Shown here in pieces: positions 46,950 through 64,000 of a stretch of DNA of 64,000 nt. The DNA comes from an uncultured Acidobacteriota bacterium (GTDB lineage: Bacteria; Acidobacteriota; Polarisedimenticolia; JACPZX01). Where the stretch lies: positions 283,215-347,214 of the forward strand of contig CAZMRF010000001.1 in NCBI GenBank assembly GCA_964568735.1, given 5' to 3'. The position numbers and the translations under genes were made by a program. The notes under the pieces were generated by a model. It ran no database searches. It was not told where the DNA came from and saw nothing but the letters and a program-made list of their open reading frames with translations. Each line of letters begins with the position of its first letter. The stretch's first letter is position 1.

Positions 46950-48520
46950 AAGGCTCGCCTCGATCCGGGGCCGGTCGCGACGTCGCGGCCGGTGTCGCCC
47001 AGCTCCTTTCGTCGAGGATCGCCGTCGCGGCCATGGCGATGATCTTCGTCGCCATCAGCACGCGCCTCCTCACGCTTCGCGAGATGGCGGTCTTCGCCCT
47101 CTACAACTCCATGTGCGCCCTGCAGGCGGTCCTCTGCTCGATGGGCCTCCTGACGACCTGCGCCCGGGAGCTGCCGGCTCTCATGGGCAAGGGGGACACC
47201 GACGGGGCGGCGCGCCTGCTGCGCACCTCGATGGCCGTCAACGCGGTCGTGTCGGCCGCCTTCGCCTCGATCCTCGCCGCGGCGGCGGGGCCGCTCGCCC
47301 GCTGGTTCCTCGAGGATCCGGGCTACGCGCCGGCCCTGAGATGGGCCGCGCTCGCCGTCTTCATCTGGAACCTCCACGAGGCCAACCAGATCTTCCTCGT
47401 GGCCCTGCAGCGTTTCGGCCCGTGGGCGCGCGTGACCGTGACCTGCGCCGTGGCGCAGCGGGCGCTCTCCCTCACGCTCTTCCTCCTGCTCTCCCCCGCG
47501 GGCTACGGGCTCGTGGGCTACATGGCCGGCTTCGCGGCGGGATCGCTCGCAGGCTTCCTCAGGGGCTTCGGATCCCTGCGCGACCTCGCGGGCCGGACGA
47601 AGGACTTCGCCCCGGCGGCACCCTTGATCAGGTACTCGCTGCCCTTCTACGCGGACGGCTACCTGCGCTATCTCTACATGCAGGCGGACCAGCTCGTCGT
47701 CGCGCTCTTCCTGACGCCCGAGGCGCTCTCGCTCTACTTCGTGGCCCGGCGCTTCATCCAGTACTACCAGCAGATCGTCTCCTCGACGATCGATCCCCTC
47801 CTCGCCAAGGTGGGAGAGATGCGCTCGCGCGGACGCGAAGCGCTCGAACGCTCGCTTCGCTCGGCCTCGAGGTATTTCGGCCTGGTCTTCCTCCCCCTGG
47901 CCGCGGGATCCGCGGCCATGAGCGCCTTCCTTCTCGACCTGGCGGGCGGCAGTCGCTACCGCGAGGCGGCCCCGGTCCTCGCGCTGCTATCTATCTCCGT
48001 AGCCGTCTACGCAGCCTTCAATCTCGTGACCGGCTACGTCTACATGCTGGGAGTGCCGGCCGATCGCCTCCGCCACAACACGGTCACGGGCCTCGCGCAG
48101 CTCGCCCTCATGGCCGGCGTCCTCGGCGTGGCGGTGCAGGCGGGAGCCCCTCCCCTCCTCGCCGCCGCCGCGATCGCCCTGGCCCGCTCCCTCGCGCTTC
48201 TGGCAGGACTCGTCTACGCGCATGGGCAATTGAAGCGCTACATCACGCCGGCCTACGCCCTCGAGGCGCTCCCGCGCGCCCTCGCAGCGTCGATGGCGCT
48301 CCTCATCGTAGCGGGCCTCCCGCAGCTCCTGGGCTACCACCCGGGGCTCGCGATCCTGTGCGGCCTCGCAGGGACCATTCTCTTCGTGGCGCTCATCCGT
48401 CCGGCGATACGCTCCGAGGATCTCGATCTCCTATCGTCGCTCCTCCACGGCCGCGCCCGCCCCCTCGAGAGCGCGATCCGTCGCCTCTTCGGCCACCCAC
48501 GCCGCGTCGAACGGACCTGA
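46946..48520 (+). CDS. Polysaccharide flippase (Wzx / MOP-superfamily oligosaccharide flippase).
   Basis: About 14 TM helices. ATGA overlap with the upstream GT4 gene. It is the final gene of the EPS locus. Confidence 0.8.
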   Translation: MKGSPRSGAGRDVAAGVAQLLSSRIAVAAMAMIFVAISTRLLTLREMAVFALYNSMCALQAVLCSMGLLTTCARELPALMGKGDTDGAARLLRTSMAVNAVVSAAFASILAAAAGPLARWFLEDPGYAPALRWAALAVFIWNLHEANQIFLVALQRFGPWARVTVTCAVAQRALSLTLFLLLSPAGYGLVGYMAGFAAGSLAGFLRGFGSLRDLAGRTKDFAPAAPLIRYSLPFYADGYLRYLYMQADQLVVALFLTPEALSLYFVARRFIQYYQQIVSSTIDPLLAKVGEMRSRGREALERSLRSASRYFGLVFLPLAAGSAAMSAFLLDLAGGSRYREAAPVLALLSISVAVYAAFNLVTGYVYMLGVPADRLRHNTVTGLAQLALMAGVLGVAVQAGAPPLLAAAAIALARSLALLAGLVYAHGQLKRYITPAYALEALPRALAASMALLIVAGLPQLLGYHPGLAILCGLAGTILFVALIRPAIRSEDLDLLSSLLHGRARPLESAIRRLFGHPRRVERT

Positions 48521-48782: not shown

Positions 48783-48840
48783 TGTTAGCGAACACCCAAA
48801 TGCGGCCAGTGGGGAACACCTGAAAACCGGCCACTTCGAG
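48783..48840. repeat. IS21 left terminal inverted repeat (multi-repeat).
   Basis: Matches the reverse complement of 54633-54689 with a few mismatches. Confidence 0.75.
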
Positions 48841-48881
48841 TAGCGGCTTTCGGGCATCCTCCTCCGTTTCGACGGAGGGGG

Positions 48882-50348
48882 GTGACGGTGCCGAACTACT
48901 TGAAGATCCATAAGCGGCAACAAGTTATCGCGCTGCTGGAGCTGGGCTGGACGTACCGGCGGATCGAGGCCGAGACGGGAGTACGCCGCGAGAAGGTGTC
49001 GCGGTACGACCGGCAGCGGCGTTCAAATGCGGCCAAAGTGTTCCCCGGCTCGGCTCTGCCTGAGCGCTGCGCGGCGGCGGCGTACCGCGAAGCGATCATC
49101 GAGAAGCGCGACTGTGGGCTGAGCAGCCAGCGGATCTGGCAGGACCTGGTTGAAGAGTACGGCTACGGCCACAGCTACGAGTCGATCAAGCGCTTCATCC
49201 GTGGACTTCCGGGGTCGATCCGTCCCGCCGGCGTGATCCACGCAGGGCCCGGGGAGGAGGCCCAGGTGGACTTCTTCCAGGGCGCCCCCACGCTCGATTC
49301 GGACACGGGCCAGTGGCGCCGCCCGTGGGTGTTCCGCATGACGCTGGCCCACTCGCGGCACGGCTACGAAGAGGCCGAGTGGGACCAGAAGCTCGGGACC
49401 TTCCTGGGCCTTCACGAGAACGCCTTCCGCGACTTCGGGGGAGTTCCGGGCGTCATCCGCCACGACAACCTCAAGGCGGCCGTGGTGCGGGCCTGCCTGT
49501 ACGACCCGGACGTCAACGAGGTCTACCTCGCCTTCGCCCGTCACTGGGGCTTCACCCCACTTCCGACCCGTCCCCGCAACCCGAAGGAGAACGGCAAGCA
49601 GGAGCGAAGCGGCGGCTACGTCAAGGACAACGCGTTGAAGGGGCGGCGCTTCAACAGCCTCGCCGAGCACAACGAACACCTGCGGCACTGGAACCGCACG
49701 ATCGCGCGGCTGCGCATCCACGGCACGACGCGCCGGCAGGTGTTCGCTCACTTCCTGGAGAGCGACAGGCCGGCGCTCTCGGCGCTGCCGGCTGAGAGGT
49801 TCGAGTTCTTCGAGTCCGGCACCAGGAGCGTTCACCCCGACGGGCACGTCGAGATCCGCGGCGCGTTCTACCCGGTGCCCGCGCACCTGCTGGGCAGGCC
49901 CGTGCGGGTTCGCTGGGACCGAAGACTCGTCCGGGTCTACGACGCCGAGGTCCAGGTCGCCGTTCACACCCGCGTCCCCGCGGGGCAGTACGCCCCCAGG
50001 AGCGGTGCTCCGGCGGCGGAGACGTCCTCTCAGAAAGCCTGGCTGGAGCGCCTGCTCGGCCGCTGCGGGCAGGTCGGCTCCGAGCTACGGCAGTGGGCCG
50101 AGGCCGCCCACGCCGAGCGCGGGGTCCGGGCGATGCGCCTGATCCAGGGGGCCCTCGCGCTGACCCGCAAGCATCCCCGGGAGCGCGTGCTGCGGGCGGC
50201 GCGGCTGGCCCTCGAGCATCGCCAGTTCCGCTTCAAGGCGCTGCGGCGTCTCGCTGAGCAGGCCCCCGTCCCCGTTCAACGCTCTCTGCTCGAAGAGCAT
50301 CCGTCGATCCGTCCCATGACGCAGTACTCACTCAAGGAGCTTCTATGA
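48882..50348 (+). CDS. istA: IS21-family transposase IstA.
   Basis: N-terminal HTH and DDE integrase core. The length and 4-bp overlap with istB are typical for IS21. Confidence 0.9.
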   Translation: MTVPNYLKIHKRQQVIALLELGWTYRRIEAETGVRREKVSRYDRQRRSNAAKVFPGSALPERCAAAAYREAIIEKRDCGLSSQRIWQDLVEEYGYGHSYESIKRFIRGLPGSIRPAGVIHAGPGEEAQVDFFQGAPTLDSDTGQWRRPWVFRMTLAHSRHGYEEAEWDQKLGTFLGLHENAFRDFGGVPGVIRHDNLKAAVVRACLYDPDVNEVYLAFARHWGFTPLPTRPRNPKENGKQERSGGYVKDNALKGRRFNSLAEHNEHLRHWNRTIARLRIHGTTRRQVFAHFLESDRPALSALPAERFEFFESGTRSVHPDGHVEIRGAFYPVPAHLLGRPVRVRWDRRLVRVYDAEVQVAVHTRVPAGQYAPRSGAPAAETSSQKAWLERLLGRCGQVGSELRQWAEAAHAERGVRAMRLIQGALALTRKHPRERVLRAARLALEHRQFRFKALRRLAEQAPVPVQRSLLEEHPSIRPMTQYSLKELL

Positions 50349-51112
50349 ACCCACAACTGGCGACCCAGCTACGGCACCTGCGCCTGAGCGGGATGGTCGA
50401 GGCGCTGAGCGTGCGCCTCGAGCAGGCCCGAAGCGCCCCCCTCGATCATCTCGAGTTCCTGGAGCTTCTCGTCGGCGACGAGTTGAGCCGCCGCGCGGAC
50501 CGTCTGTTCGCCCGCCGCCTCAAGCAGGCCGGCATCGTCCAGGTCAAGGAGCTCTCGGAGTTCGACTTCACGTTCAACCCGAAGATCCCACGCGCCAAGC
50601 TCGTCGAGCTCGCCACCGCCCGCTTCGTCGCCACCCACCAGGGCGTGCTCCTGATCGGCCCGCCCGGCATCGGCAAGACGCACGCCGCCGTGGCGATCGC
50701 CGTCGGCGCGATCCGCGCCGGCTACCAGGCCAGGGTCCGAAGCGCCTTCGACCTCGCCCAGGACTTCCTCGAGGCCGAGGCCGCCGGCGAGAGGCGCGCT
50801 CTGGTCGAAAAGCTCACCCGCGTGAACCTCCTCGTGCTGGAGGACTTCGGCATGAAGAAGCTCGGAGGAAGCGCCGCCGAGGACATGCTGGAGATCTTCG
50901 TCCGCCGCCACGAGAGCGCCTCCACCCTCATCACCACCAATCGCCCCACGGAGGACTGGGGCCAGTTCCTCGGTGACGTCCCCGCGGCCACCGCGATCCT
51001 CGATCGGTTCCTCGCCCACGCCGAGCTCATCCAGATGCAGGGCAAGAGCTACCGGCTCCACCAGCGGGCCCGCCGGAGCGGACAGGGCGCTGAGGCGAGA
51101 CCGTCGGCATGA
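50345..51112 (+). CDS. istB: IS21-family helper ATPase IstB.
   Basis: Walker A LLIGPPGIGKTHAAVAIA. Walker B LLVLEDFG. DnaC-like. Confidence 0.9.
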   Translation: MNPQLATQLRHLRLSGMVEALSVRLEQARSAPLDHLEFLELLVGDELSRRADRLFARRLKQAGIVQVKELSEFDFTFNPKIPRAKLVELATARFVATHQGVLLIGPPGIGKTHAAVAIAVGAIRAGYQARVRSAFDLAQDFLEAEAAGERRALVEKLTRVNLLVLEDFGMKKLGGSAAEDMLEIFVRRHESASTLITTNRPTEDWGQFLGDVPAATAILDRFLAHAELIQMQGKSYRLHQRARRSGQGAEARPSA

Positions 51113-51300
51113 TCACGTCACGAAGCCCGATCCGGGGGGTGCTGCGGGTTGGACCCCTCGATCGTCTCTCAACCTGGAGGCGGCCAGGGGCGATTCTTTA
51201 CGAAGGCGGCCTGTGGATCCTGCCGGAGCCGTGGAAAACGCAAACAGACGCGTTTCCCACCGCTCCTTGGACGGCGCACACAACGCGCCGCCCACAGGCT

Positions 51301-51320
51301 TTATGCGCAGCTGCGCATAA
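51301..51320. repeat. Perfect 20-bp palindrome (TTATGCGCAG|CTGCGCATAA) abutting the RIT left IR.
   Basis: Seen directly in the sequence. It lies immediately outside the left 37-bp IR. Confidence 0.8.
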
Positions 51321-51357
51321 AGCCTGATATGCCCAGCGGGACGTTATGCGGAGCCGG
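51321..51357. repeat. RIT left terminal inverted repeat (37 bp, perfect).
   Basis: Exact reverse complement of 54515-54551. Confidence 0.9.
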
Positions 51358-51418
51358 TCTGCTTCCCCCTGTGCCCTTGTTGATCCTGATGAGGCCGCGC
51401 GCTCATAACCTCCTACAC

Positions 51419-52429
51419 CTACAACTGCTCCAGCCAGCCAAGTAGATCCTCCCTGTGCCGCGGGATCGCTGGCCCGGTGCTGACCGGCTTCGGGGCGGCT
51501 TCCAGCGCTCGACGCTTCATCTCCAAGTCCGCCTGCACGTACACCTCGAGCGTCTTGAGGTGAGCGTGGCCCAAGATGTCCTTGATGGTGACGGGGGAGA
51601 CCCCTGCCTGAAGCAGATGCATCGCCTTGGTGTGTCGCAGGGTGTGCGGGCTGATCCGCTTCCCGCGCAATGCTGGCATCCGGTTGGCTGCGACTCGACT
51701 GTACTTGTTAAGCAAGAAGGTCACACCTGAGCGAGTCATCTTCTCCCCGCGGTAGTTCCTGACAAGCGGCGATGTGTCACTGGACACGCGGCTGGTCTCC
51801 TTCAGGTGGTCCCCGACGATGGATGCCGTGGCAGGCAGCAGTGGAACGATCCGCTGCTTGCGGCCCTTGCCAGTGACCCGCACCAGTGGCATCCGCTCCA
51901 GGCGGAAGTCAGCAGGGCACAAATCGAGCAGCTCTTGAACGCGAGCACCCGTATCGTAGAGCAGAGCCAGCACGAGGTAATCACGGCGGCCTTGGGGCGC
52001 CCGTCGGTTCGGCCCGCCCAGGATGGCTCCCAGTTCCTCCTCGGTCAGATAGCCGAGAATCCGCCCCAGGGCCTTCTTGAACGGTATGGCCAAGATCCGT
52101 TGCCCGAGGGCAGCGGCCGCGGGATCCTGACTGACCGCGTAGCAGAAGAAAGAACGGATGGCCGCGAGTCTCGCGTTGCGTGTGTGGGCCGAGTTACCCC
52201 GTTGCTGCTCGAGGTATTCGAGGAAGCTCAGGATCGTCTGTGGGGCAAAGTCGTCCAACGTGAGTCGCGAGACTCGCTGGCTGTTCGAGTCGGTGATGTA
52301 GCGAAGGAACAGGCGGAAAGTATCGCGGTAGCTGGTGATCGTGTGCCCACTCGCGTTGAGTTCCGCCGCCAGATGGCGCATGAAGAACGACGTCACCAGA
52401 TCGGCAAGGTGAGCGCGGGGCGTGGTCAT
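51419..52429 (-). CDS. Tyrosine recombinase (third gene of the trio, RitC-like).
   Basis: Phage-integrase fold with R...HxxR...Y catalytic residues (HTLRHT...Y). Its ATG at 52429 overlaps the ritB stop (ATGA). Confidence 0.85.
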   Translation of the reverse strand: MTTPRAHLADLVTSFFMRHLAAELNASGHTITSYRDTFRLFLRYITDSNSQRVSRLTLDDFAPQTILSFLEYLEQQRGNSAHTRNARLAAIRSFFCYAVSQDPAAAALGQRILAIPFKKALGRILGYLTEEELGAILGGPNRRAPQGRRDYLVLALLYDTGARVQELLDLCPADFRLERMPLVRVTGKGRKQRIVPLLPATASIVGDHLKETSRVSSDTSPLVRNYRGEKMTRSGVTFLLNKYSRVAANRMPALRGKRISPHTLRHTKAMHLLQAGVSPVTIKDILGHAHLKTLEVYVQADLEMKRRALEAAPKPVSTGPAIPRHREDLLGWLEQL

Positions 52430-53391
52430 GAAGTCACCTCCGCCGTGATGAGGTCGCCGAAGCGGGCGAGATGGCGCCTGGTCACTTCGCCAACCAGATC
52501 CCGTGTCATGTGAAGGTAGACCTGAGACGTGTTCAGACCGACGTGGCCCAGGTAGGTCGCAAGCAGGGGGAGCTTCGCCCAAAGATCCGCGCCCGCCTCG
52601 TACCAGCTGAGCAGCCTGAGGACGGCAAAGGAATGACGAAGGTCGTGCAGTCGGGGACCACGGCCCCGCCCGTGGTGGTCGATACCCGCGATGACGAGCA
52701 CTTGGCGGAAGGACTTGTAGAGGCTTTTGGGAGCAGTGGGGCGGTGACCATCCGAGCGGGGAAAGAACGCATCGGCCGGGCGGCGACCGGCAACTTGCCC
52801 GGCCACAATGTCACGGTACGCACCTAAGCGTTCCGTGAGATCGGAGGTGAGTGGCACGAAGCGCGACTTGCCAAACTTGCCTTGGCGGACCGTGATCAGA
52901 CCGTTGACGAGATCGACGTCGTCGTCTCTGAGCGCGAGCACTTCACCGCGCCGGAGGCCGGTCAGCAGAAGCACCCTCAACGCAGTGGCGCGTACCAGCC
53001 CACGGGGAAAGGTCGAGCTAGTGGCAGGCAACTGCTCGCAGGCGTCCAGGAATCGGCCTGCCTCCGTCCGCGACAGCACACGGATCACAGGTCGGCGGCG
53101 CCGAATGCCGAGAAACCGTCTCGTTGGCACAAAGGTACGGGACTCCTCGACCACCAGGAACCGAGCCAGCTGGCGGATCACGGTGAGGTGATGAAGGCGG
53201 GAGCCATCATTCAGGCGGGAAAGGTACTCGCGCGTCATGGACTCACAGAGCACAGGTTCGCTTCTGGTTGCGAGGAACCTGTCGAACTCATGGAGAAACC
53301 CCTCCTCTCGGTGGTAGGCCAGGCCGAGAGAGCGCTTGTGCGCCAGAAAGCGCTCGATCTGGAATCCAACCGGGCTCACGAAGGCTCTCAT
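52426..53391 (-). CDS. Tyrosine recombinase (second gene of the trio, RitB-like).
   Basis: Integrase core (HDLRHSFA...Y). 4-bp overlap with ritA. Confidence 0.85.
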   Translation of the reverse strand: MRAFVSPVGFQIERFLAHKRSLGLAYHREEGFLHEFDRFLATRSEPVLCESMTREYLSRLNDGSRLHHLTVIRQLARFLVVEESRTFVPTRRFLGIRRRRPVIRVLSRTEAGRFLDACEQLPATSSTFPRGLVRATALRVLLLTGLRRGEVLALRDDDVDLVNGLITVRQGKFGKSRFVPLTSDLTERLGAYRDIVAGQVAGRRPADAFFPRSDGHRPTAPKSLYKSFRQVLVIAGIDHHGRGRGPRLHDLRHSFAVLRLLSWYEAGADLWAKLPLLATYLGHVGLNTSQVYLHMTRDLVGEVTRRHLARFGDLITAEVTS

Positions 53392-54395
53392 CCGCGCACC
53401 TCCGCTTCCGAGAGCGCTACCGAGCGCAATCCGGCCAGATCAACCTGGGCGTAGCGGCGCGTCGTGTCGACGGACATATGCCCCAGCACGTCGGAGATCG
53501 TGTCGAACGGGACGCCCTTCTCCAGCATCCGCGTCGCCAGGCAGTGACGTAACAAGTGAAGCCCGCGCCCGGGTCCCGAGAGAGTAATCCCTGCCGCCCG
53601 CACAGCTCGTCCCATCACAGTCCAGAGGTGATTGCGCCTCGCAATCGACCTGATGGGTGCCACGTGACGGACGAAGACCTCTCGCGCGGCACATGCAGGT
53701 CGGCCCTGATGGATGTACTCAACCAGCGCCTCGTCCACATCAGCAAGGAGTGGAAGTTCGAGCGGCCGTTGGGTCTTCGATTGCACGAAGACGAGGCGCT
53801 GCTCGCGCCAGTGGATGTTCTCGAAGCGAAGAGCACGGATGTCACAAGAGCGCAGGCCGAGACGTGCGGCCAGAAGCAATATCGCGTAGTCGCGCTTGCC
53901 CAGAGCGGTGGAACGATCCACGCCCGCGATGAGCCGCTCTACCGTCGCTTCGTCTACCACCTGCGGCGGCCGGCTCATCTGATAGACCCGTGGAACCTCC
54001 ACCGCATGAACCAGGTCGGTCGTCAATGCCCCTTGCAACCGCAGATAACTCAAGAACCCGCGCAGAGCCGATGCATGGACAGCGATGGTCGAACGCTTGA
54101 AGTGCTGGAGAGAGGAGACATAATCCCGGACGTGCCCCGCGCTCAGCTGGTGAAGATCGGCAATGCCAAGGCCTTCCAACCATGAGAAAAACCGGCCGAG
54201 ACCGTTCTCCAACTGGTGAGTGGTTCGGCGCCCTCGATGCTGGCGGACGAAGCTCAGATACGGAGGCACAAGGGTCTCGTAGAGTGAGAACGACGGACCC
54301 CCATGCACCCCAGACTGGCTGTCCACAGGCTCATCGTGCCGCGCTTGTTCGCAGGCGGATCCCGCCCGCCTGCGCATCGCCGACTCGCGCATCAT
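53388..54395 (-). CDS. Tyrosine recombinase (first gene of the trio, RitA-like).
   Basis: SAM-like N-domain plus catalytic core (HLLRHCLA...Y). Confidence 0.85.
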   Translation of the reverse strand: MMRESAMRRRAGSACEQARHDEPVDSQSGVHGGPSFSLYETLVPPYLSFVRQHRGRRTTHQLENGLGRFFSWLEGLGIADLHQLSAGHVRDYVSSLQHFKRSTIAVHASALRGFLSYLRLQGALTTDLVHAVEVPRVYQMSRPPQVVDEATVERLIAGVDRSTALGKRDYAILLLAARLGLRSCDIRALRFENIHWREQRLVFVQSKTQRPLELPLLADVDEALVEYIHQGRPACAAREVFVRHVAPIRSIARRNHLWTVMGRAVRAAGITLSGPGRGLHLLRHCLATRMLEKGVPFDTISDVLGHMSVDTTRRYAQVDLAGLRSVALSEAEVRG

Positions 54396-54514
54396 CCACC
54401 TCCGTTTCGACCAACGACAGACCTCCCCATGAGGTCGTTCGGTGACCAGAGGTTATGAGCGCGGTGGGTCGGACTGAACCAAGTGAATCTAGGGAGTTAC
54501 TGCCTCATCCGTCG

Positions 54515-54551
54515 CCGGCTCCGCATAACGTCCCGCTGGGCATATCAGGCT
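54515..54551. repeat. RIT right terminal inverted repeat (37 bp, perfect).
   Basis: Exact reverse complement of 51321-51357. Confidence 0.9.
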
Positions 54552-54632
54552 CCACAGGCCCGGCGAGAGCACTCTCTCTCAGATGATGCTTGAACCAATG
54601 GGAGCACCTGCACGATACTGACAACCCGCGAC

Positions 54633-54689
54633 CTCGAGTGGCCGGTTATCAAGTGTTCCCCGGTGGCCGCTTATGGGTGTTCGGTGACA
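54633..54689. repeat. IS21 right terminal inverted repeat.
   Basis: Reverse complement matches 48783-48840. It is followed by the ACGTGA target duplication. Confidence 0.75.
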
Positions 54690-54872: not shown

Positions 54873-55340
54873 TCAGCGGTCTGCTCTAGCCCCGATAGAC
54901 CCAATGCTTATAGCTATGCCGATGCCGATTAGGATCGCGACGGCCTGTCCCATAGACTTGCTCATCACATGCTCTCTGACTCCCGACATGGGGGAAACGC
55001 TCGAGAGTGAAAACATTAGCACACTCACTGAGATACCGAGCGCCATATGATTCAGCCCAATGCGTTTTCCCAAACGGCTTGTCAGCATCAAGAACGTTCG
55101 AGCCAATCCCTCTCCAACGAAATACCCCACTGAAGCGTATAGGCACCACAACAAAGAACTGAACCAAAACCCCCACTCGAAGCGTTCCGCTCCGACGATG
55201 CAGACGGTGACCCCCAAAGCAGCCGCAATGGAAACCAGTGATGCCCCCAGCCCACTCCACAAGTTATCCTTTGGCATGACCTCGTAGGCCCTACGCAGAA
55301 GACCTCCTCCAAGCATCAGCTCCAACCACCTCGGAGCCAC
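54873..55340 (-). CDS. Small 4-TM membrane protein, a candidate immunity protein for the upstream RHS toxin.
   Basis: Low GC (about 50%). Four hydrophobic helices. Located immediately 3' of the RHS gene on the same strand. No recognisable family. Confidence 0.45.
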   Translation of the reverse strand: MAPRWLELMLGGGLLRRAYEVMPKDNLWSGLGASLVSIAAALGVTVCIVGAERFEWGFWFSSLLWCLYASVGYFVGEGLARTFLMLTSRLGKRIGLNHMALGISVSVLMFSLSSVSPMSGVREHVMSKSMGQAVAILIGIGIAISIGSIGARADR

Positions 55341-55505
55341 TAGTTCTCCCGAGTGTCCAACATCGGATGTTGCCGCTCACAGCATTTTAGACAGGCATCC
55401 GTGCCCCTGGCCACCTCCCCTCTATCCCCGGCAGGTCGGATCGGCTCGTCGCTCGCGTCTCCTGAGCCCGAGGCCTCTTGCACATTCTCGCGGTCGTCGA
55501 CCCCG

Positions 55506-58500
55506 TCAGAAGTTCCTCAGCCGCTCCTCACTGTCCTTCTTGGCCTGCTCGGCATCTGCTTCATCTTGCTTATATCGATCGGAATGTTCACCTGGCGCCC
55601 GCTCACTCGAGTCGCCGCTCCTCTTCCCCTTATCGTTCCTCGTCGCATCGGGAAGGGGTACCCCCTTGCCCCAGCCGGGGTGCCATCCTCGCAGCTCACC
55701 GCCAATCTCCTCGGAGTCAGCCCCTGCCGCTTCGAGAATCCCGCTTGCTAGACCATTGCTGTTGTACTCGCCGGAGCCTGAACCGGTCGGACCGTACGGT
55801 TGGTTGTTCGGATATGATTGAAAAGCCTCGATGACATTCGCCTCAAACTGCTCCATGGTCTGGCCCTCGGGAGGCGTTAGCTCGACCGTTTGGTCCTCTC
55901 GACCGATATCGCGCTTGTCATTCACTTTGCCCGTTAGTTTGCCTTTTTCCCCCTCGAAGCCAGATAGTGTTATGGTCCCTGTGCTGCTGTTCACTAGGTT
56001 TGCGAACCTCGTCGCATTCTCTCCAGTCGGTGTAATGATAAAGAACGCGTGGTTGCCAGCAGGGGACCAATCAACATCCCTGCTCGCCAGCGTGACATCC
56101 TCGCCTGTGTCATCGCGGTATCCAACTGGATTGTTGGTAGCGTAGGAATACCGATTGAATCGCAGTGGGATATGTAGCCTGAGCGAAGTGATGGTGACAG
56201 GATCTGCCGCGAGGAACCGATGCTGATCACTGCCGTAGTATCGCGCGAACATGTAATCGAGTCTCGTGCTCTCGTCGCGCTCGTGTCCGGTGAAGCGGTG
56301 CGTGTTCCCTGTTACTGCCAGGCCCTGCCCAAGCATCTCCTCACTGAAGGGAAGATGCTTGGTCTCAAACGTCTTCTGGCCTGCCTCGTTCGTGATCACC
56401 CTCACTGTGCCGAGATGGTCCCACGAGAAGAACTCCCACTCGAACGCCTTGCCGGTCGCTCCCGTGATCAGGAGCAGGACGCTGTTGAGCCCACCCTCTG
56501 CCTCCAAGCTCACGCCGAGGAGGCTCGTCACACCGAAGCGCGCGGCGAGCAGCTCACCCGGGCCTTCTGTCCCAGCGCTTCCCTCAAGGGAGCCGGGCGC
56601 GGAACCCGGAGCCTCCCGTTGGGGCTCTTGCCATGAATCGTCCGCGGCAGGCGGGGTGATGCCTATCGGTCGTGACGCCCCGGACGCTTCAGATTGCTCC
56701 ACTTCCAGCAGCAGAGGCTTTTCCGGACTGATACTCCAGTCAGGTGATCTGCCCGATGCATCTTGGCCTCCCGCAGGTGGGGCATCTGCAGTGGGGCTCA
56801 GTGTTCGACCGGGACGTCCGGTCCTTCCTGGGAGATCACTATGCTGGAGAGAGGCGATCGCCACAGGGATATCAGAATCCGACAATCCGACCGGTACTTC
56901 TCGACCTTGTCCGTTCGAGACTCCTGCGCTGCGGTGAGCGGGTCCAGTACCGCCTCTGAACCTCTCCTCCGCGTGTCCCTCCCGGAGCAATGTGATCGTA
57001 GCCTCCGCCACTGCCGATTCGGGGAGATCATCATGGCTATCGGATCGCTTGGCCATCCTCCAGCCTGCTTCGCCGGGTGGCCCTTCGATGACCTCCGGGA
57101 GGTTGGAGACTGACGCGCGTCTGCCACCCCCCCGCAGCACAAGCGGCATCCTATGGCCCATCTCTTCTTCCTGCCACGTGTCACCGAAGACCTGAGGAGG
57201 GGCGCAGCAATAGATGTTGGGATCGTAGAAGGGCTGGCTCCCATCGAGGTCCGGGCAGGCGGTGTCGTCATCAACGACCTGGCGGTTTTCATCCACGCAC
57301 ACGTCCTGCGACATGAACGTCATCGTGATGACGGGGTTGTTCGGATCCGTCGTCTCGTAGAGGTTGATGATGTCCGCCCTCAGCGCATAGGCCCACACTG
57401 CGAGGCCGTTCGGGTCGACGGGGGGATTCACGTTGATGAAGCCCGCGGCGGGATCGAAGGTGAACGTATTGGGAGGAGGCGTGTAGTTCGGATCGGTCGG
57501 AGGGCGCTGCTGGATCAGCTTCCACTGAAGTACCTCGTAGGCGCTCCCCACGAGCGAACACTGCTTGAAGCCCTCCGCGTTGAAGTGCACTTTCCCAGCG
57601 ACGCCGAGATGAACGGTGGGGATGTTCGGCTCCAGAATCCACTCCAACCGTCGCACCAGCGAGTCTTCCGTCTCCTCCCCGGAAGTGCTGATACCGTTGA
57701 CGATGTAGTCGTACACTCGGCACCTGTCCACCCCCAGATCGACGTAATCCGGGTCGAAAGCATGGGTTGGGGGGATCTCCTCCCCCTCGGGAGGGTAGAC
57801 GTGGCTCACGGGCGCACTGTGCACAAGATCCCAGGCCTTTTCCGGGTCGCCCACCTCACGCCGGTACAACCGGAACTCATCGTACTCGGCCGCATTGATC
57901 CCTGCAGGGCCATACGCGATGAACGCCGACGCCCCGTAGAGACCCAGCAGGGCGTTCGCCTCGATCTGGGGAGCCTGGGGTGACGCCACACGGGGTCGTG
58001 CCTCGACGGTCGGGGACTTGCTGGATTCGTTGCCGTCGTAGTCCTTCGCGGACACCGCGTACACGTAGCTCTCACCGGGAGCGGGCAGCGTCAAGCCGCT
58101 ATCTGTCCACGCGGTCAGATAGGCGCTCGCCGTCCCTCGGAGCACCAACTGGTCAGGCCCTCCATTGGGGTCCTCCTCCAGCCTCCAGATCCGGAACTCT
58201 TGCAGATCGCTCTCTGAGCTCGGCCACCAGGCGACCGTGACCTCGTTTGCCAGCGGCCCCGGAGTGGCACGGACGCCCAAGGGAACAGCCGGTGGCATCC
58301 CGTCCTGCGGCGTCGCACTCACCAGCTCGCCCCAGTCCTCGCTCCCATCGGTGCTGACCCCCCGCAGCTCATAGAAGTAGGTCTGCCCGACGGACACGCC
58401 TAGATCATAGAACGTCGTCCCAGTCAGCGGGAACGTGTTGAGCTTCGCCCACGAGCTCGAGTTCGGATCGATCGTACGCCAGACGTTATAACCCTGAAAG

Positions 58501-61500
58501 ACCGTGGCCGGGTCGGCGACGAAGGGCCCGTTGTCTCCAGGGGCCCGCTCCCAGCTCAGCACGACGGCGTGCTCCGTCGCCGTGACAGTCAGTCCCAAGG
58601 CATTCGGATCCGGAGCCTGCAGGGTTGCGAAGGGTTGCATCCGCAGGCCCCGTGAGGTGACGCTTTCATCCGTGCCTCGCAACGCGGCGATTCTGTAGTG
58701 CCGGAACTCGCCGCTTCCGATCATGTTGGGGTCCTGCCACTGCAAAGCCGGGGTCGCTACCGTGGCGATCGGCACCCAGCCTCCGACCCACTCCTTCTTG
58801 TAAATTCGGAATCCCGTCACGTCCGCCTCAACCGCTGGGAACTCCAGCGTCACCCAATGTGGGCCTATCGCGGGCGACGTCATGTAGCTCTTGACGGCAA
58901 GCGGCTTCGGACGCAACTCCTCCGCCTTCCCGATCACGCGCCCGAGCGCGTAGAAGTAGTCCTTCTGCCAGAAGCCCGCGCTGAGGCCAGCGCCCGACGG
59001 GATGAACTCCGACAAGACGTTTCCCTCGCTGTCTCTCACGTAGAAGATTCGCTCACCCGTCTCCGGCGACTCCTTGTAGAACCTCATTCCTCCGGCATCG
59101 TAGGCGTAGACTCCGATCGGGTAGGTCTTGCTATCGTGCTTCACGGCGGCAAGACGGTTGCGGGAGTCGAAGAGATACCTCTGCGCGATGTCCTCTCGGA
59201 GGTTTCCCCGCTGGTCGTACTCGAAGAGCGATCCCGACTGCGTCAGGATTCTGTTGGTATAGGGATCGATGGAGAAGAGGGCCTGCGACGCCGACGCGCC
59301 GTTGTTGTTGGAGTCAACGGCCAGGATGTTTCCGAAATCGTCGTATTCCCACCACTGCTCGAACCAGGCCTGAGCCGGGGCCGTGTGGACGTTGTCGTCA
59401 TACATCCACATGTGCGTGAGGCGGCCCGCGAGGTCGTACTCGAAAAAGTCATAACCGATGTACGAGATGTTGCCCGCCCCGTCATACTCGTGAAAGCCCG
59501 TGTCCAATAGCCAGTTCACGGAACCCTGACCATTGTCGTGCTTCGCCCGGATCTGGCGCGGGCGGTACATCGAATCGTGCTCGATGATGTTCGTCACGCC
59601 GTTCGCGTAGGCTACTTCCTTGACGCCTCCGGCGTCGTTGTAGAGCACGTCCCGGATAAGCGACCAGTTGGGATCCGAGGGCGTCGCGAGAGGATTCCGT
59701 CTCGAGTCGTTCACCCTCTTGAGCATCCCGAACGAGTGCAGGTAGGACAGGTTTGCCACCTGATCGGCCGTGTAGGTGCTGCAATCCGCCGTGGCCGGAT
59801 ACCTCGTAGCGGCAGGCAGGCCGAGCTCGTTGTACGTGTAGCAGGTCGTGAACTCCGGGTCTCCCGCCTGGAAGCCCGAGAGACCGTCCCAGAGGGAGAA
59901 CTGGGTCTTCTCCTGGCCCAGCCGTCCATTCAGCCCATCGTAGAAGAAGCGTCTGGAGGCCGTGGCGGAGCCGGTCTCGTCGAAGGACCAGACGCGGGTC
60001 AGCCGGCCGAGCCCATTGGTCACCAAGGCATCGTCATACTCATAAGCAGCCCGCGGCGTAAGAGGACCGAATCCCCCGCCAGGCATGGGGATCTCCTGCT
60101 CGACGAGCGCGAGACGCCCCGCCGCGTCGTAGTCCAGCGTCACGCGCGTCCCATCCGACTCGACCTTCTCCAGCAGCCTGCCCTCGGCGTCGTACCGCAC
60201 GTACAGGACTGTCCCCTCTTCGGGTGAGATGGCGACGCGCACCTGCCCCAAGCCGTCATAGTCGTATGTCCGATGCTGGATGAATGGTTCGTAGTAGGTG
60301 TCGCCCTCCACGAGCTCAACGCGCAGAATGTCTCCCACCGCGTCGTAGATGTAGCGCGCGTCTGCACCCTCCGGAGAGTCCACATAGGTGAGCCTTCCGA
60401 AGGCATCCCGGCGTTGCCGGGTGACCGAGGAGGCGCTTCCGAGCGTTCCCGGGGAGGCGTTGATGTCACGTATGGTTGCTACCGAATCGGTCCCGGAGTA
60501 GGCGAACTCCGTCGTTGCACCGTCCGCGCGTGTGACCTTGTGAATCCGTCCGAAGGGATCCGGAGCTGTCAGCCCGTTATCCTGAAAGCTGTAATCGTAA
60601 TAGGTCCCGAGGTTGTCCCCCGAAGCCGAGGGGCAAGGTGGGGAACCTGCCTGCCAGGTCGCCCACTCCGAGACGTACGTCTGGCGATCCAGCTTGTCGT
60701 AGCACATCCTCTGCGACACGAGCTGACTCGCGCTCAGCCACCGCCGGCGCTCGACGTGACGGCCACGTTTGTCGAGGTAGTTCCGCTGCTCGATTCGATC
60801 GCTGTTCGGATCACCCGTCACGACTCGGCTCTCCCAAATCGACGGATAGGAGATCTCCGTAGGAAGCTCCACGCCCGATGGCTCGATCCGTGTGAGCCGG
60901 CCGCGCGCGTCATACCAATAGGATGTTGCGATTCCCGAAGGATCTCTGCTCATCAGAATGAGCCCGGTCGCCGGATCCCGATCGACGTCGAAGCTGAAGT
61001 ACGAGAACTCCTCCTCCTGGTCGTTCGGATCCAGCGCGAGGGTGACTTTCTGCGTGATGTACGGTCCCGTGTGATAGAACCGCGTCCCGTACCAGGAGCC
61101 GTCGTCGCCGCCCGAGACGGAGTTACTCTCCAGTAGTCCCGTGTCGGGATCGTAGTTGAAGGTCTGCACGATGTCCGCCGTGCTCTGAGCCGGAGGGGCC
61201 ACTGCCCTCCGGACCGTCTTCAGCTTGCCGTCGTCCTCGTAGGTAAACCAGCTCTTCCGTAGAACGCTGCCCGATCCATCCTCGATCCATGATTCTGTCA
61301 GAGCGTCCTTGACCCAGTTCGCATACATCGGCCCGCTCTGAGGCTCGATATAGAGCCGCTGCGTCGTCCGCTCGGGGATGTCCTGAGATTCAAATCCGAA
61401 CTCCTTCGTGACCTCGAAGTGACCATACGGGACGGGGGCCTCGTTGAGGACCCGAACCTCCTTTCCGACCTCCGGGTACGTCGTCCTCGTCCTGGTCAGC

Positions 61501-63008
61501 CTGACGTCGGGAGTCTGGTAGGTCGGGTCGAACAGGCTTCCGTAGTCCTGATAGATGTGCTCGACCCATCGAACCAGCTCTCCATCTCCGGCCGCAGCGC
61601 CCTCGCTGTTGAGGGGGCTGCCGCGGTAATACTCCGTCTGTCGCGTGAGGCCTTCGACCGCCGAACCGTCAAAATAGGGGGAGTAGTTGATGTACTTCGT
61701 CTGGTTCCCCATGGGATCTTTCATGATGACGAAATCGAACCACTTCACTGGATTCTGTTCGGCGCTCGACGTCGCGTGACGGGTATATGTCCAGACTGAA
61801 GAGATGGAATCCGCCGTGACCGTCTTCCGCTTCACCATCCTCGTGTAAACGTAGTGCTCCGAGAGGCCATAATTGAGATAGTCGTAGGCGTCGTACTCGT
61901 ACGCGACGGTTGCGCCCGCGGTACCCGCTGAGACCAACGATTGCTCCGTCAACTCGCCTGAGCCTGAGTCGTACTCGAAGGCGTAGTCGAAGATGCTCGA
62001 GCCGTCGGCTTTCTTGGGGCTTGCGCTGGACAGCAGGATCTGATCGTCGATGCTCGCGGAGGCCAGGTAATTCGAGAGCTCCAATGTTTGCGGCGCAAGG
62101 TATGAGAACGTGTACCGGGCAGTCGTGCTCGACTGTCCGTCAACGGCGGGCAGGATGATCTCCGACGTGAAGCCCCCTTCGACTTCGGTCCCTCCCCACC
62201 CTGGCTTCGTCGATTCGTTGACGAAGTCCACGGTCCGGTACGGCGTCGCCGACGATCCGATGAAATCCTGAATCTGATCAATGCAGTGAGGATGATTGAG
62301 ATCGTAATCGACCTCGACACGCGAGAGAATCGCGTTGGGATCCGGGCCGTGCCTGAGAATCCTGCTGGTCATCCAGCCCGTGCGGTCATCGTGTTCGACG
62401 GGATGGGGATCGGTGTCCTTTCGAGCGACATCGAAAACGTACTCGATCCCGTCGCCGGTCCATATCTGCCAGCTCACGACCTTGTTGGGATCGGCCGGGG
62501 TCGTCGGCTCGCTCAGCGTCACGAGCACTCTCATGTACGTCCCGTCCGTCGTCTTGCCCGTGTACTGAAGCTGCCCGTGGAGCCCGAGATTGAGGTGAAT
62601 GGGATGGAGCGTTCCGCGCTCGTCCTCGAAGTAGAAGCCCGTCATCTGGCCGCAGGCATAGCGGCAATGCTGGAAGACCCTTCCCATCCCGAGGTGCCAG
62701 CCCACTCCGAATGCCCCCCGTCTCGAGAGTGATCGCTCGGGATCGGGATTGAGGTGCCAGATTCGCCAGATCTTGGAGGAGTAGTTCAGGCTGAGCCCCC
62801 AGGACATGCCGGGAAGCTCCCAGCGCGGCCCGATGGGGATCGAAATCTCCAGGTCACCAGAGTAAGTGTTGATCGAGTCGTTGAGGGTCGAGCCCGTCTG
62901 GATCGAGTAGGTCGGCAGCCCTGTGGCTTCGTTTGCGTTATAGGCATCAAGTCGCGAAGCGGTTACAAGTAGCACGACGAGCAGACAAGGAACCCCCCGC
63001 TTGCTCAT
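55506..63008 (-). CDS. Secreted RHS/YD-repeat protein with FN3 domains, an RHS-core end motif, and a variable C-terminal toxin-like domain.
   Basis: Signal peptide MSKRGVPCLLVVLLVTAS with RBS GGGGGAG. Dozens of YD repeats (YDAVGDIL, YDYDGLGQV, YDAEGRLL, LDYDAAGRL). Several FN3-like modules. RHS core terminus DHLGTVRV...ARYYGSDQHRFLAADPV...NRYSYATNNPVGYRDDTGE, followed by an unmatched C-terminal domain of about 190 aa. GC is lower than the genome. Confidence 0.9.
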   Translation of the reverse strand: MSKRGVPCLLVVLLVTASRLDAYNANEATGLPTYSIQTGSTLNDSINTYSGDLEISIPIGPRWELPGMSWGLSLNYSSKIWRIWHLNPDPERSLSRRGAFGVGWHLGMGRVFQHCRYACGQMTGFYFEDERGTLHPIHLNLGLHGQLQYTGKTTDGTYMRVLVTLSEPTTPADPNKVVSWQIWTGDGIEYVFDVARKDTDPHPVEHDDRTGWMTSRILRHGPDPNAILSRVEVDYDLNHPHCIDQIQDFIGSSATPYRTVDFVNESTKPGWGGTEVEGGFTSEIILPAVDGQSSTTARYTFSYLAPQTLELSNYLASASIDDQILLSSASPKKADGSSIFDYAFEYDSGSGELTEQSLVSAGTAGATVAYEYDAYDYLNYGLSEHYVYTRMVKRKTVTADSISSVWTYTRHATSSAEQNPVKWFDFVIMKDPMGNQTKYINYSPYFDGSAVEGLTRQTEYYRGSPLNSEGAAAGDGELVRWVEHIYQDYGSLFDPTYQTPDVRLTRTRTTYPEVGKEVRVLNEAPVPYGHFEVTKEFGFESQDIPERTTQRLYIEPQSGPMYANWVKDALTESWIEDGSGSVLRKSWFTYEDDGKLKTVRRAVAPPAQSTADIVQTFNYDPDTGLLESNSVSGGDDGSWYGTRFYHTGPYITQKVTLALDPNDQEEEFSYFSFDVDRDPATGLILMSRDPSGIATSYWYDARGRLTRIEPSGVELPTEISYPSIWESRVVTGDPNSDRIEQRNYLDKRGRHVERRRWLSASQLVSQRMCYDKLDRQTYVSEWATWQAGSPPCPSASGDNLGTYYDYSFQDNGLTAPDPFGRIHKVTRADGATTEFAYSGTDSVATIRDINASPGTLGSASSVTRQRRDAFGRLTYVDSPEGADARYIYDAVGDILRVELVEGDTYYEPFIQHRTYDYDGLGQVRVAISPEEGTVLYVRYDAEGRLLEKVESDGTRVTLDYDAAGRLALVEQEIPMPGGGFGPLTPRAAYEYDDALVTNGLGRLTRVWSFDETGSATASRRFFYDGLNGRLGQEKTQFSLWDGLSGFQAGDPEFTTCYTYNELGLPAATRYPATADCSTYTADQVANLSYLHSFGMLKRVNDSRRNPLATPSDPNWSLIRDVLYNDAGGVKEVAYANGVTNIIEHDSMYRPRQIRAKHDNGQGSVNWLLDTGFHEYDGAGNISYIGYDFFEYDLAGRLTHMWMYDDNVHTAPAQAWFEQWWEYDDFGNILAVDSNNNGASASQALFSIDPYTNRILTQSGSLFEYDQRGNLREDIAQRYLFDSRNRLAAVKHDSKTYPIGVYAYDAGGMRFYKESPETGERIFYVRDSEGNVLSEFIPSGAGLSAGFWQKDYFYALGRVIGKAEELRPKPLAVKSYMTSPAIGPHWVTLEFPAVEADVTGFRIYKKEWVGGWVPIATVATPALQWQDPNMIGSGEFRHYRIAALRGTDESVTSRGLRMQPFATLQAPDPNALGLTVTATEHAVVLSWERAPGDNGPFVADPATVFQGYNVWRTIDPNSSSWAKLNTFPLTGTTFYDLGVSVGQTYFYELRGVSTDGSEDWGELVSATPQDGMPPAVPLGVRATPGPLANEVTVAWWPSSESDLQEFRIWRLEEDPNGGPDQLVLRGTASAYLTAWTDSGLTLPAPGESYVYAVSAKDYDGNESSKSPTVEARPRVASPQAPQIEANALLGLYGASAFIAYGPAGINAAEYDEFRLYRREVGDPEKAWDLVHSAPVSHVYPPEGEEIPPTHAFDPDYVDLGVDRCRVYDYIVNGISTSGEETEDSLVRRLEWILEPNIPTVHLGVAGKVHFNAEGFKQCSLVGSAYEVLQWKLIQQRPPTDPNYTPPPNTFTFDPAAGFINVNPPVDPNGLAVWAYALRADIINLYETTDPNNPVITMTFMSQDVCVDENRQVVDDDTACPDLDGSQPFYDPNIYCCAPPQVFGDTWQEEEMGHRMPLVLRGGGRRASVSNLPEVIEGPPGEAGWRMAKRSDSHDDLPESAVAEATITLLREGHAEERFRGGTGPAHRSAGVSNGQGREVPVGLSDSDIPVAIASLQHSDLPGRTGRPGRTLSPTADAPPAGGQDASGRSPDWSISPEKPLLLEVEQSEASGASRPIGITPPAADDSWQEPQREAPGSAPGSLEGSAGTEGPGELLAARFGVTSLLGVSLEAEGGLNSVLLLITGATGKAFEWEFFSWDHLGTVRVITNEAGQKTFETKHLPFSEEMLGQGLAVTGNTHRFTGHERDESTRLDYMFARYYGSDQHRFLAADPVTITSLRLHIPLRFNRYSYATNNPVGYRDDTGEDVTLASRDVDWSPAGNHAFFIITPTGENATRFANLVNSSTGTITLSGFEGEKGKLTGKVNDKRDIGREDQTVELTPPEGQTMEQFEANVIEAFQSYPNNQPYGPTGSGSGEYNSNGLASGILEAAGADSEEIGGELRGWHPGWGKGVPLPDATRNDKGKRSGDSSERAPGEHSDRYKQDEADAEQAKKDSEERLRNF

Positions 63009-63195
63009 GGCAATCTCCCCCAAGGGTTGGAACGGACGGCGGGACTGGCGTTGAAGCTCGAGGAGGCGAGCCTGGAAAGTCCAGCGTAGAAGCGACTGCG
63101 GCGGACATGGGGAGCTCAGAATGTCCCAGAATGTCCCATCTGGATAATTGCCGGGCAGGACTTTTCTACCTTGATCCGCTCTCCCTGTCAATCCC

Positions 63196-63561
63196 CTATT
63201 TGCCTTGAAAGGCGGGGCGGTTTCCGAGGCCTCGGCGGGTCCGAGGTGCGAGCTCGCTGATCAGCAATGCGTAGGCTGGCGATGGGTTCGAATCGAGGCC
63301 GGACTGAGCCTCGGAGAGAGCCTCGTCGAGGAGGCTCATCATGATAAGCGCTGCGGCGAGCGCTGGCCCGGCGGTGACGAGGTCGGGGTCGATCGCGAGC
63401 GCCTCCCCATAGCACCGCTCAGCCTCGAGGAGCCGCCTCATCGCCAGGAACGATGCGGCGCGCTTGCTGTTGGCGATGGCGAGAGTCGGTTCTACCGCCG
63501 TCGCGCCGCCGAGTGCCTCTACGGCTTCGTCGTGGCGTCCGCCCCGCGCTGAGCACCTCAT
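63196..63561 (-). CDS. Possible TPR-like fragment or hypothetical ORF.
   Basis: Ala/Leu-rich helical repeats only. Weak support. Confidence 0.25.
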   Translation of the reverse strand: MRCSARGGRHDEAVEALGGATAVEPTLAIANSKRAASFLAMRRLLEAERCYGEALAIDPDLVTAGPALAAALIMMSLLDEALSEAQSGLDSNPSPAYALLISELAPRTRRGLGNRPAFQGK

Positions 63562-63588: not shown

Positions 63589-64000
63589 TCAGGTCAGGTC
63601 GTCGCGCCCATCCTTGCGGAGACGCTCGACAACCTCGCGCACACGCTGGGACTCCCCCTTCCGGCAGATCAGGAGAGCGTCGTCCGTGTCGACCACGATG
63701 AGATCCTCGACGCCGACGAGCGCGACGAGCCGCTTGTTGCCGCGGACGAAGCAGCCCTTCGCCCCCACGGAGACGCTGTCGCCCTGGAAGGCGTTCCCGC
63801 CCGCCTCCCTGGGAGCCATCTCCTCGATGGCGTCCCACGAGCCGACGTCGCTCCATCCGGCGTCGCAGGGCACGACGAGGACGTTCGGGGCCTTTTCCAT
63901 CACGGCGTAGTCGATCGAGATGGACTCCTGGGCCTCGAAGATCTCCTTGACGACCCGCGCGACACCCGGGAGAGCCATCGGATCGAGCACGGGCCCTTCG
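63589..64000 (-). CDS. manC: Mannose-1-phosphate guanylyltransferase (ManC/AlgA/CpsB family). C-terminal part of the gene; the rest continues beyond the window.
   Basis: Hallmark motif DAGWSDVGSW and neighbouring conserved blocks. The ORF runs off the window end. Confidence 0.7.
   Translation of the reverse strand, partial: EGPVLDPMALPGVARVVKEIFEAQESISIDYAVMEKAPNVLVVPCDAGWSDVGSWDAIEEMAPREAGGNAFQGDSVSVGAKGCFVRGNKRLVALVGVEDLIVVDTDDALLICRKGESQRVREVVERLRKDGRDDLT

Follow-up and report, generated by a model that had tools for sequence, protein, structure and literature searches.

A signal-peptide RHS protein with a fibronectin type III insertion and a predicted permuted papain-like toxin tip, followed by a candidate membrane immunity gene, in an uncultured Acidobacteriota bacterium

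Rearrangement hotspot (RHS)/YD-repeat proteins, such as the Rhs proteins of E. coli and Dickeya and WapA of B. subtilis, are polymorphic toxins whose immunity genes lie downstream, in the classification of Zhang et al. 2012 (PMC3482391). We analysed an RHS locus in a 64,000-nucleotide (nt) stretch of DNA, designated as the window, from an uncultured Acidobacteriota bacterium (GenBank assembly GCA_964568735.1, contig CAZMRF010000001.1, positions 283,215 to 347,214 of the forward strand). The minus strand of the window contains a single very long open reading frame (ORF) at 55506–63191, within which the RHS gene occupies 55506–63008. The ATG at 63008 is the likeliest start of this gene: a GGGGGAG Shine-Dalgarno sequence lies 7 nt 5' of it, and the start, which yields a protein of exactly 2500 amino acids (aa), agrees with the starts of close homologues. 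A small ORF for a membrane protein follows on the same strand. From the RHS start codon onwards, the locus comprises the following features.

62943–63008, minus strand: Sec signal peptide (signal peptidase I type), aa 1–22, MSKRGVPCLLVVLLVTASRLDA followed by YN, as read from the sequence
58914–62942, minus strand: N-terminal plug region and YD-repeat shell, aa 23–1365, with RHS_repeat and YD_repeat matches, ending at the conserved KDYFYALGRVIG strand
57639–58910, minus strand: four tandem fibronectin type III (FN3) modules, aa 1367–1790, inserted in the last shell loop
57129–57638, minus strand: fifth conserved beta-rich, Cys-containing module, aa ~1791–1960, kept at the same position in the homologues P0076, P0077 and P0079
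56499–57128, minus strand: low-complexity, probably disordered linker, aa ~1961–2170 (~210 aa), its composition read from the sequence
56103–56498, minus strand: final strands of the shell and RHS-associated core (putative autoprotease plug), aa ~2171–2302, ending NNPVGYRDDTG
55644–56102, minus strand: predicted C-terminal toxin domain, aa 2303–2455, modelled as a permuted papain-like fold, with His2320 at 56049–56051 and N-S-N (aa 2416–2418) at 55755–55763
55506–55643, minus strand: charged low-complexity C-terminal tail, aa 2456–2500, after a conserved LPDATxND motif, and stop codon
54873–55340, minus strand: candidate immunity gene for a small four-helix inner-membrane protein, 155 aa from the GTG at 55340 or 147 aa from the ATG at 55316 (as in gene call P0002)

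The RHS protein matches the shell repeat families RHS_repeat (PF05593, Pfam, 6.7e-18) and YD_repeat (TIGR01643, NCBIfam, 2.8e-16), and Rhs_assc_core (TIGR03696) is matched at aa 2233–2302 with 56.8 bits (cut-off, 32.5). A near-identical database copy, P0003, and the homologues of that copy have a precomputed PF25023 (TEN_YD-shell) assignment. The core motifs WDHLGT...RFLAADP...DDTG line up with those of the homologues, and the junction between the core and the C-terminal tip is DDTG in the window protein versus DPxG in most members of the tip family. Going by the core motifs ERD...AADP...DDTG, the tip would be encapsulated and released by autoproteolysis, on the pattern of other RHS proteins.

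The N-terminus of the protein, MSKRG followed by VPCLLVVLLVTA and SRLDA before YN, has the n/h/c layout of a Sec signal peptide. Equivalent signal peptides are present at the same position in P0076, P0077, P0078, P0005, P0009 and P0011, and those of P0076, P0077 and P0078 precede a conserved NEATG...PIGPxWELPGMSW motif. Neither a PAAR nor a VgrG family of Pfam or NCBIfam was matched by the RHS protein, and aa 1–464 are without any family at E ≤ 10. Its immediate neighbours are a tetratricopeptide repeat (TPR) ORF, a ManC-type gene and an IS21/RIT element; the RHS protein thus has no PAAR/VgrG-linked domain, and these immediate neighbours include none of the vgrG or Eag chaperone genes, of an Rhs effector delivered by a type VI secretion system (T6SS). 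An earlier reading of this DNA, made from the sequence alone (the sequence-only reading), had described a 2500-aa RHS/YD protein with a signal peptide and without T6SS-associated PAAR or VgrG features, and both descriptions hold.

Between shell and core the protein carries an insertion of ~800 aa. A hidden Markov model (HMM) built from four putative modules delimits them at aa 1367–1461, 1468–1569, 1572–1674 and 1677–1790, re-detects the window modules at E 1e-33 to 1e-39 and finds similar modules in P0005 and P0011. A profile of ten modules matches titin, a 'Fn3-like protein', PTP-delta and designed FN3 structures in the PDB (E 5e-30 to 1e-7), and PF00041 matches four of the ten aligned modules; the window RHS protein alone has no Pfam FN3 match. 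The at least four FN3-like modules that had been proposed for this region are therefore real by comparison with known structures, and the fifth beta-rich module, for which Pfam gave no family match, and the ~210-aa linker are to be added to them. The length and sequence of the linker differ among homologues in the alignment with P0076, P0077 and P0079. The insertion as a whole is kept in the same three proteins, between the last shell strand, KDYFYALGRVIG, and the core-leading strands GGLN...FFSWDHLGT, and an FN3 insert is found at this site in P0005 and P0011 as well. This conservation of the whole insertion marks a distinct RHS subfamily. From the size and position of the insert, we infer that the FN3 array lies outside the shell.

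The database copy P0003, encoded on a JGI contig of 9079 bp, shows an apparent single-residue difference, His for Asn at aa 1685 of the RHS protein (window ~57954–57956, ...PQIEA[N/H]ALLG...). Its near identity indicates that the same locus was sampled as a variant in a public metagenome.

The tip after the core is 198 aa long and contains a domain of ~155 aa. It has no Pfam match at E ≤ 10 and no sequence match in the PDB, against which phmmer and profile searches returned chance matches only. A word-indexed homology search with the tip retrieved one relative, and an exhaustive HMMER search retrieved 74 representatives of clusters formed at 50% identity (6 at E ≤ 1e-30 and 23 at E ≤ 1e-10), with the window protein itself present near-identically as P0003. 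The host proteins range from short fragments up to 3123 aa, and where the upstream sequence is long enough, the tip nearly always stands directly after the RHS DPxG junction. The members come from an Acidobacteria metagenome-assembled genome (MAG), Ralstonia solanacearum and many metagenomes; the family thus extends beyond the window locus, with one of its 74 representatives in a cultured Ralstonia. Across 58 members, no Pfam family covers the tip domain. We regard the tip as the representative of an unnamed family without a Pfam entry, for which toxin activity is predicted. Highly charged C-terminal tails of 40–50 aa, similar in character to that of the window protein and different in sequence, are also seen in P0001, P0004 and P0009.

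An alignment of 41 tip sequences, numbered from RDDTG, revealed that His23, Tyr108, Asn119 and Gly132 are invariant and that Ser120, Asn121 and Asp70 are nearly so; His2320, Tyr2405 and Asn2416-Ser2417-Asn2418 (the NSN motif) are the corresponding residues of the protein. Ser occupies the nucleophile position in ~65 of the 74 representatives and Cys in five, an alternation of the sort that a catalytic nucleophile should show. The catalytic cysteine of circularly permuted NlpC/P60 enzymes is accordingly replaced in the window protein, which has Ser2417.

An AlphaFold2 model of the tip computed from the family alignment has a mean predicted local distance difference test (pLDDT) of 93.6 and a predicted template modelling score of 0.90. 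Strand 2 holds the invariant His and the N-terminus of helix 120–130 the Ser; the model has a papain-like core in which the His-bearing strands come ahead of the nucleophile helix. Fold-comparison scores were obtained with YiiX (7.9), the T6SS effector TseH (7.2), PPPDE/DeSI (6.7), Aichivirus 2A (6.7), the B. cereus structure 3KW0 (6.6), PLAAT4 (5.8), CLN5 (5.8) and MARTX RID (5.4), whereas canonical, non-permuted P60/CHAP enzymes scored only ~2. Foldseek against the PDB returned nothing significant (TseH ranked fifth, E 0.65), and hhalign comparisons of the tip family profile with E. coli YiiX (E 0.54) and with an RHS tip of the TseH clade from Ralstonia pseudosolanacearum (E 0.09) were likewise not significant; in the best register of the latter, non-significant match, the Ser aligns with the Cys of an NQC motif. 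Since the model is confident and the Foldseek and profile matches are not significant, we assigned a fold class and withheld a named family. As modelled, the tip domain probably belongs to the permuted papain-like fold class, with His2320 and Ser2417 as the putative catalytic pair.

Among named families, LRAT, Peptidase_C92, DUF4105, DUF6695 and NLPC_P60 of Pfam gave no match in 41–58 tip members. The only recurrent Pfam signal was DUF3750 (PF12570), which reached 14–17 bits, below the gathering threshold of 25, in five of 41 members and in the Ralstonia tip. These matches cover the helix-Tyr-NSN-helix segment (profile positions ~63–112 of 128); the window tip itself gave no DUF3750 match. DUF3750 has been classed as a papain-like family in which Ser replaces the catalytic Cys, without known function (PMC10318531). 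By sequence, the tip would be remote from DUF3750 and falls in no named family. The statement of the sequence-only reading that the tip cannot be assigned thus survives for sequence families, with no Pfam or PDB match, and gives way at the level of fold, where the AlphaFold2 model can be classed as permuted papain-like (NlpC/P60). The same reading had allowed that the tip might prove to be a structural or non-toxic domain; it models instead as an enzyme fold like that of TseH and MARTX RID, with an invariant His and a Ser/Cys position.

The Ser could nevertheless mark a loss of activity, leaving a catalytically dead tip that would, for example, bind, plug or form pores without acting as an enzyme. 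A C-to-S mutation usually deprives papain-like enzymes of most of their activity, and DUF3750 combines a positively charged pocket with a lack of demonstrated activity (PMC10318531). However, the His, the Asn-Ser-Asn, the Tyr and the Gly are invariant or nearly invariant across sequences that are 27–50% identical, and the Ser alternates only with Cys, the other possible nucleophile. Both features point to selection on the nucleophile rather than decay, and we consider a dead tip to be scarcely probable.

The small membrane ORF begins 165 nt (GTG) or 189 nt (ATG) past the RHS stop codon. Its four hydrophobic segments are consistent with the four-transmembrane (4-TM) ORF that had been reported to follow the RHS gene, and a single-sequence model of low confidence (pLDDT 54) places helices at residues 19–45, 49–81, 86–106 and 114–146. 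A homology search with this ORF retrieved only itself. In pairwise comparison, it proved homologous to the ORFs that directly follow the closest tips in loci L001, L002 and L016 (26–28% identity in the best BLAST alignments, with E 9e-8 in one comparison), and the four ORFs have an F/YEWG motif in common. A small polytopic membrane ORF follows the tip in nine of the ten informative loci, which are the window; L001; L002 (L003 has an identical ORF); L016; L017 (also sampled as L005, L006 and L008); L014; L009 (to which L010 is closely related); L011; and L020. The ORF is tightly linked to the tip and overlaps it in L001, L002, L016 and L020.

The divergence of these membrane ORFs follows that of the tips. 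Tips that are 81–87% identical are accompanied by membrane ORFs that are 59–75% identical, and at a tip identity of 46–51% the ORFs retain a still detectable identity of 20–26%. Membrane ORF identity is not detectable for L017 (tip 45–48% identical) and L014 (tip at most 32%). More distant tips precede unrelated small ORFs with 2–4 TM segments, and non-homologous 4-TM ORFs of like size follow the tips in L017, L014 and L020; where similarity is lost, the length (137–157 aa) and four hydrophobic segments at similar positions persist. In the comparison across loci, the downstream ORF thus keeps its kind and changes together with the tip, the opposite of what would have refuted the sequence-only reading. 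The membrane ORF is most likely the cognate immunity gene. The stretch that separates the RHS stop codon from the membrane ORF holds a weak sigma-70-like promoter match, TGGCCA-18-TAAAAT (window 55384–55413, minus strand; one found versus 0.4 expected in shuffled sequences), and such a site could drive the immunity gene separately.

The tips themselves vary among related RHS proteins. Proteins that are 31–44% identical over the shell and FN3 insert bear unrelated tips, as in P0076, P0077, P0079, P0080 and P0081, which have the same shell, FN3 insert and core; the variability anticipated for related genomes is therefore found. Of two scans of genome contigs, the first was empty and the second yielded two MAG loci. 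In L014 (a MAG), L013 (an Acidobacteria MAG contig) and L020, the NSN-type tip stands as a cassette in a series of orphan RHS C-terminal fragments, and each alternative tip in these arrays has its own small downstream ORF. Orphan cassettes, which had been suggested as something to look for, are thus present in related loci and are not found in the 64-kb window, where no orphan RHS core or tip remnants were detected.

The arrays in L014 (4346–15840) and L013 (14–3129) include alternative tips with a zincin-like domain (HExxH) and other domains, and the RHS protein of L014 has a beta-sandwich-like insertion at the shell-core junction. L020 lies on the megaplasmid of R. solanacearum CFBP2957 (NZ_CP115953.1). 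Positions 329–12584 of the locus hold signal-peptide RHS genes of ~830 aa, together with RHS fragments, in an array for which no genes are listed in the PLSDB table. One of its RHS genes (833 aa, NZ_CP115953.1 ~532737–535238) has an NSN-type tip and an overlapping 4-TM ORF; another NSN-type tip, more divergent and with a DUF3750 match of 17 bits, stands in the next fragment, and the 208-aa ORF after it is non-polytopic.

These linked ORFs also bear on whether the protein acts on bacteria at all. Sec export without T6SS features, together with an FN3 array of a kind typical of adhesins, would suit an anti-eukaryotic or other non-bacterial-targeting toxin or adhesin (Tc-toxin-like or teneurin-like), in which case the membrane ORF would not be an immunity gene; permuted papain-like domains occur, moreover, in MARTX RID and in PLAAT-like viral 2A proteins. 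Against this, the tip is followed, in different phyla, by a small ORF in tight linkage that diverges in parallel with it, and the alternative tips in the arrays of L014, L013 and L020 each have an ORF of their own, which is the signature of self-protection against an antibacterial toxin. We therefore judge a non-bacterial target to be very unlikely. The comparison supports the polymorphic toxin/immunity pair that the sequence-only reading had proposed, with toxicity, immunity and export beyond the Sec step as predicted properties.

Base composition distinguishes the tip from the remainder of the locus. The G+C content is 61.4% for the whole RHS gene (76% at third codon positions, GC3) and 61.0% for the shell (GC3 79%), and it is 55–57% for the core, tip and membrane ORF (GC3 62–67%); neighbouring host genes have 67–73% (GC3 88–93%, or 78% in the TPR ORF). 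An island of 55–60% had been claimed from the sequence, which is right for the core, tip and membrane ORF against flanks of 67–73% and too low for the RHS gene as a whole. The composition agrees with a foreign locus, and the lower GC3 of the core, tip and membrane ORF relative to the shell fits a recent cassette acquisition, which suggests that the tip/immunity cassette was acquired more recently than the shell.

Our best explanation is that the RHS gene codes for a polymorphic toxin, with a tip that may attack membrane lipids, and the membrane ORF for its cognate immunity protein; we hold this to be the more probable account, with some reserve. After Sec export, the aspartyl autoprotease of the core would cut at the DDTG junction, and the freed tip would stay within the shell. 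The FN3 array would project from the shell exterior and bind the surface of a target cell or the envelope or exopolysaccharide of the producer. The tip may be a circularly permuted papain-like (NlpC/P60-superfamily) hydrolase or acyltransferase that uses His2320 and Ser2417, the latter replaced by Cys in a minority of the family, and it would attack phospholipid acyl chains, or another envelope acyl or amide bond, from the periplasmic side. The four-helix membrane protein would neutralise the tip at the membrane of sibling cells.

The lipid target is suggested by analogy with characterized effectors. The nearest precedent by function is Tox-Act1, a T6SS effector with a permuted NlpC/P60 core whose toxicity is confined to the periplasm; it cleaves phosphatidylglycerol and phosphatidylethanolamine, and a membrane immunity protein with two helices counters it. 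Phospholipase activity has likewise been observed for TseH, and the homologue tables of the same study include RHS-fused members, one of them in Ralstonia (PMC12994826). On this analogy we favour a membrane-lipid target, tentatively and at somewhat less than even chances. Its main rival retains the RHS toxin/immunity system and makes the tip a cell-wall hydrolase that, in the manner of classical NlpC/P60 and Tae effectors, would act on peptidoglycan as an amidase or endopeptidase. The modelled fold of the tip belongs to the NlpC/P60 superfamily, TseH was first proposed as an endopeptidase (PMC12994826), and the ORF downstream of the tip in L007 is secreted or lipoprotein-like, the type usual for immunity against periplasmic wall hydrolases. 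The steady pairing of polytopic membrane proteins with the tip points to a membrane-level site of action. We regard wall hydrolysis as unlikely.

Several observations weigh against the toxin/immunity explanation as we have set it out. The junction motif is DDTG in the window, not DPxG, and a ~270-kDa Sec-exported cage must still exit a diderm cell and enter its target. A Ser nucleophile is unusual in a papain-like fold, and DUF3750, which has Ser at this position, is without known activity (PMC10318531). The membrane ORFs of distant loci have no detectable sequence similarity to one another, and L007 carries a lipoprotein-like ORF after the tip instead of a membrane ORF, so the rule of membrane immunity is not absolute.

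In its general build, the system resembles known RHS polymorphic toxins: it has a YD shell, a DPxG-type core junction, a variable tip of distinct composition, a linked small ORF, and orphan cassettes in related loci. RHS toxins are well known, and the system itself is therefore no surprise. It differs from them in its Sec signal in an apparently diderm lineage, as opposed to the PAAR/VgrG (T6SS) context or the Gram-positive wall context of WapA, and in the ~800-aa FN3 and linker insertion between shell and core. Like the TcB/TcC cocoons of Tc toxins and the teneurins, it would, by analogy, have an RHS/YD cage around an autoproteolytically released C-terminal domain, with extra domains in or on the shell. 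Unlike them, it has no TcA partner and no beta-propeller, its FN3 array sits at the shell-core junction, and an immunity-like gene follows.

The tip has no significant sequence relationship to Tox-Act1 or TseH, and its family has Ser in ~90% of members, as opposed to Cys. The immunity candidate of the window has four helices versus two in Imm-Act1, and a Sec-exported RHS protein stands in place of T6SS delivery. DUF3750 shares the Ser at the nucleophile position and has no described toxin context. YiiX/YaeF (Peptidase_C92) and the LRAT/PLAAT acyltransferase-phospholipases are housekeeping or eukaryotic enzymes with a Cys nucleophile rather than toxin cassettes, and the tip has no sequence similarity to E. 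coli YiiX. What appears to be new, as judged from sequence comparison and modelling, is the combination of Sec export, a conserved FN3 insertion, and a tip of an unnamed family, serine-type and of permuted papain fold, that occurs together with four-helix membrane proteins.

A broader proposal is that the NSN tips form a distinct class of serine-nucleophile permuted papain-fold acyl-hydrolase or acyltransferase toxins, countered by a four-helix immunity family and carried on FN3-decorated Sec-exported cages as a T6SS-independent route in soil diderms (Acidobacteria and Ralstonia), with the FN3 modules serving target recognition; in this full form we consider it rather doubtful. If the serine papain chemistry is true, it would add to the lipid-targeting permuted NlpC/P60 toxins represented by Tox-Act1 and TseH, and DUF3750-like proteins would gain a first functional context. 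An FN3 array in a signal-peptide RHS protein raises the questions of how the protein exits a diderm producer and how it recognises a target without a T6SS. R. solanacearum CFBP2957, a cultured strain with the same tip and a 4-TM ORF, offers an experimentally accessible model.

Beyond the membrane ORF, the toxin locus is flanked by a composite mobile element.

48783–54689, plus strand: IS21-family element with istA (48882–50348) and istB (50345–51112), which has no part in the function of the toxin locus
51321–54551: RIT-type element of three Phage_integrase (tyrosine recombinase) genes with overlapping ends, apparently intact

The IS21 assignment follows from Pfam matches to IstB_IS21 (1.6e-60) and to rve/Mu-transposase C. 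An imperfect inverted repeat pair of 67 nt (48783–48849 and 54623–54689) encloses istA/istB and the RIT-type element, which is itself bounded by perfect 37-nt inverted repeats (51321–51357 and 54515–54551); because the 67-nt pair brackets both, the RIT-type element is nested in the IS21-family element. The right-hand terminal repeat extends to 54689 and leaves 184 bp up to the membrane ORF, in agreement with the adjacent IS21 element noted previously. No target-site duplication of the IS21/RIT element was identifiable. A link between the recombinases of the window and those beside the L001 locus was considered and rejected, since they have only a generic similarity of ~30%.

No conserved accessory gene was detected upstream of the RHS gene; L016, L018, L019 and the window have different genes there. 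The TPR-repeat ORF directly upstream on the same strand (121 aa, window 63196–63561, minus strand) is not kept upstream of the related RHS genes of L016, L018 and L019 and is unrelated to the TPR ORF of L016; it could be a leftover or have no connection with the RHS gene. Scans of the window for Rfam families and tRNAs gave no match.

The IS21/RIT element and the RHS locus lie between genes of polysaccharide-synthesis type (window ~39600–48520) and a ManC-type gene (63589–63990; PF22640, 1.3e-22, Pfam). Glycosyltransferase, O-antigen-ligase-like and flippase-like genes were assigned from their translations only. With polysaccharide-type genes on both sides, the insertion may interrupt an exopolysaccharide cluster. 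Among the glycosyltransferase genes, a 384-aa ORF (44551–45705, minus strand) with the Walker A sequence GPRMTGKST looks like a stand-alone AAA-type ATPase.

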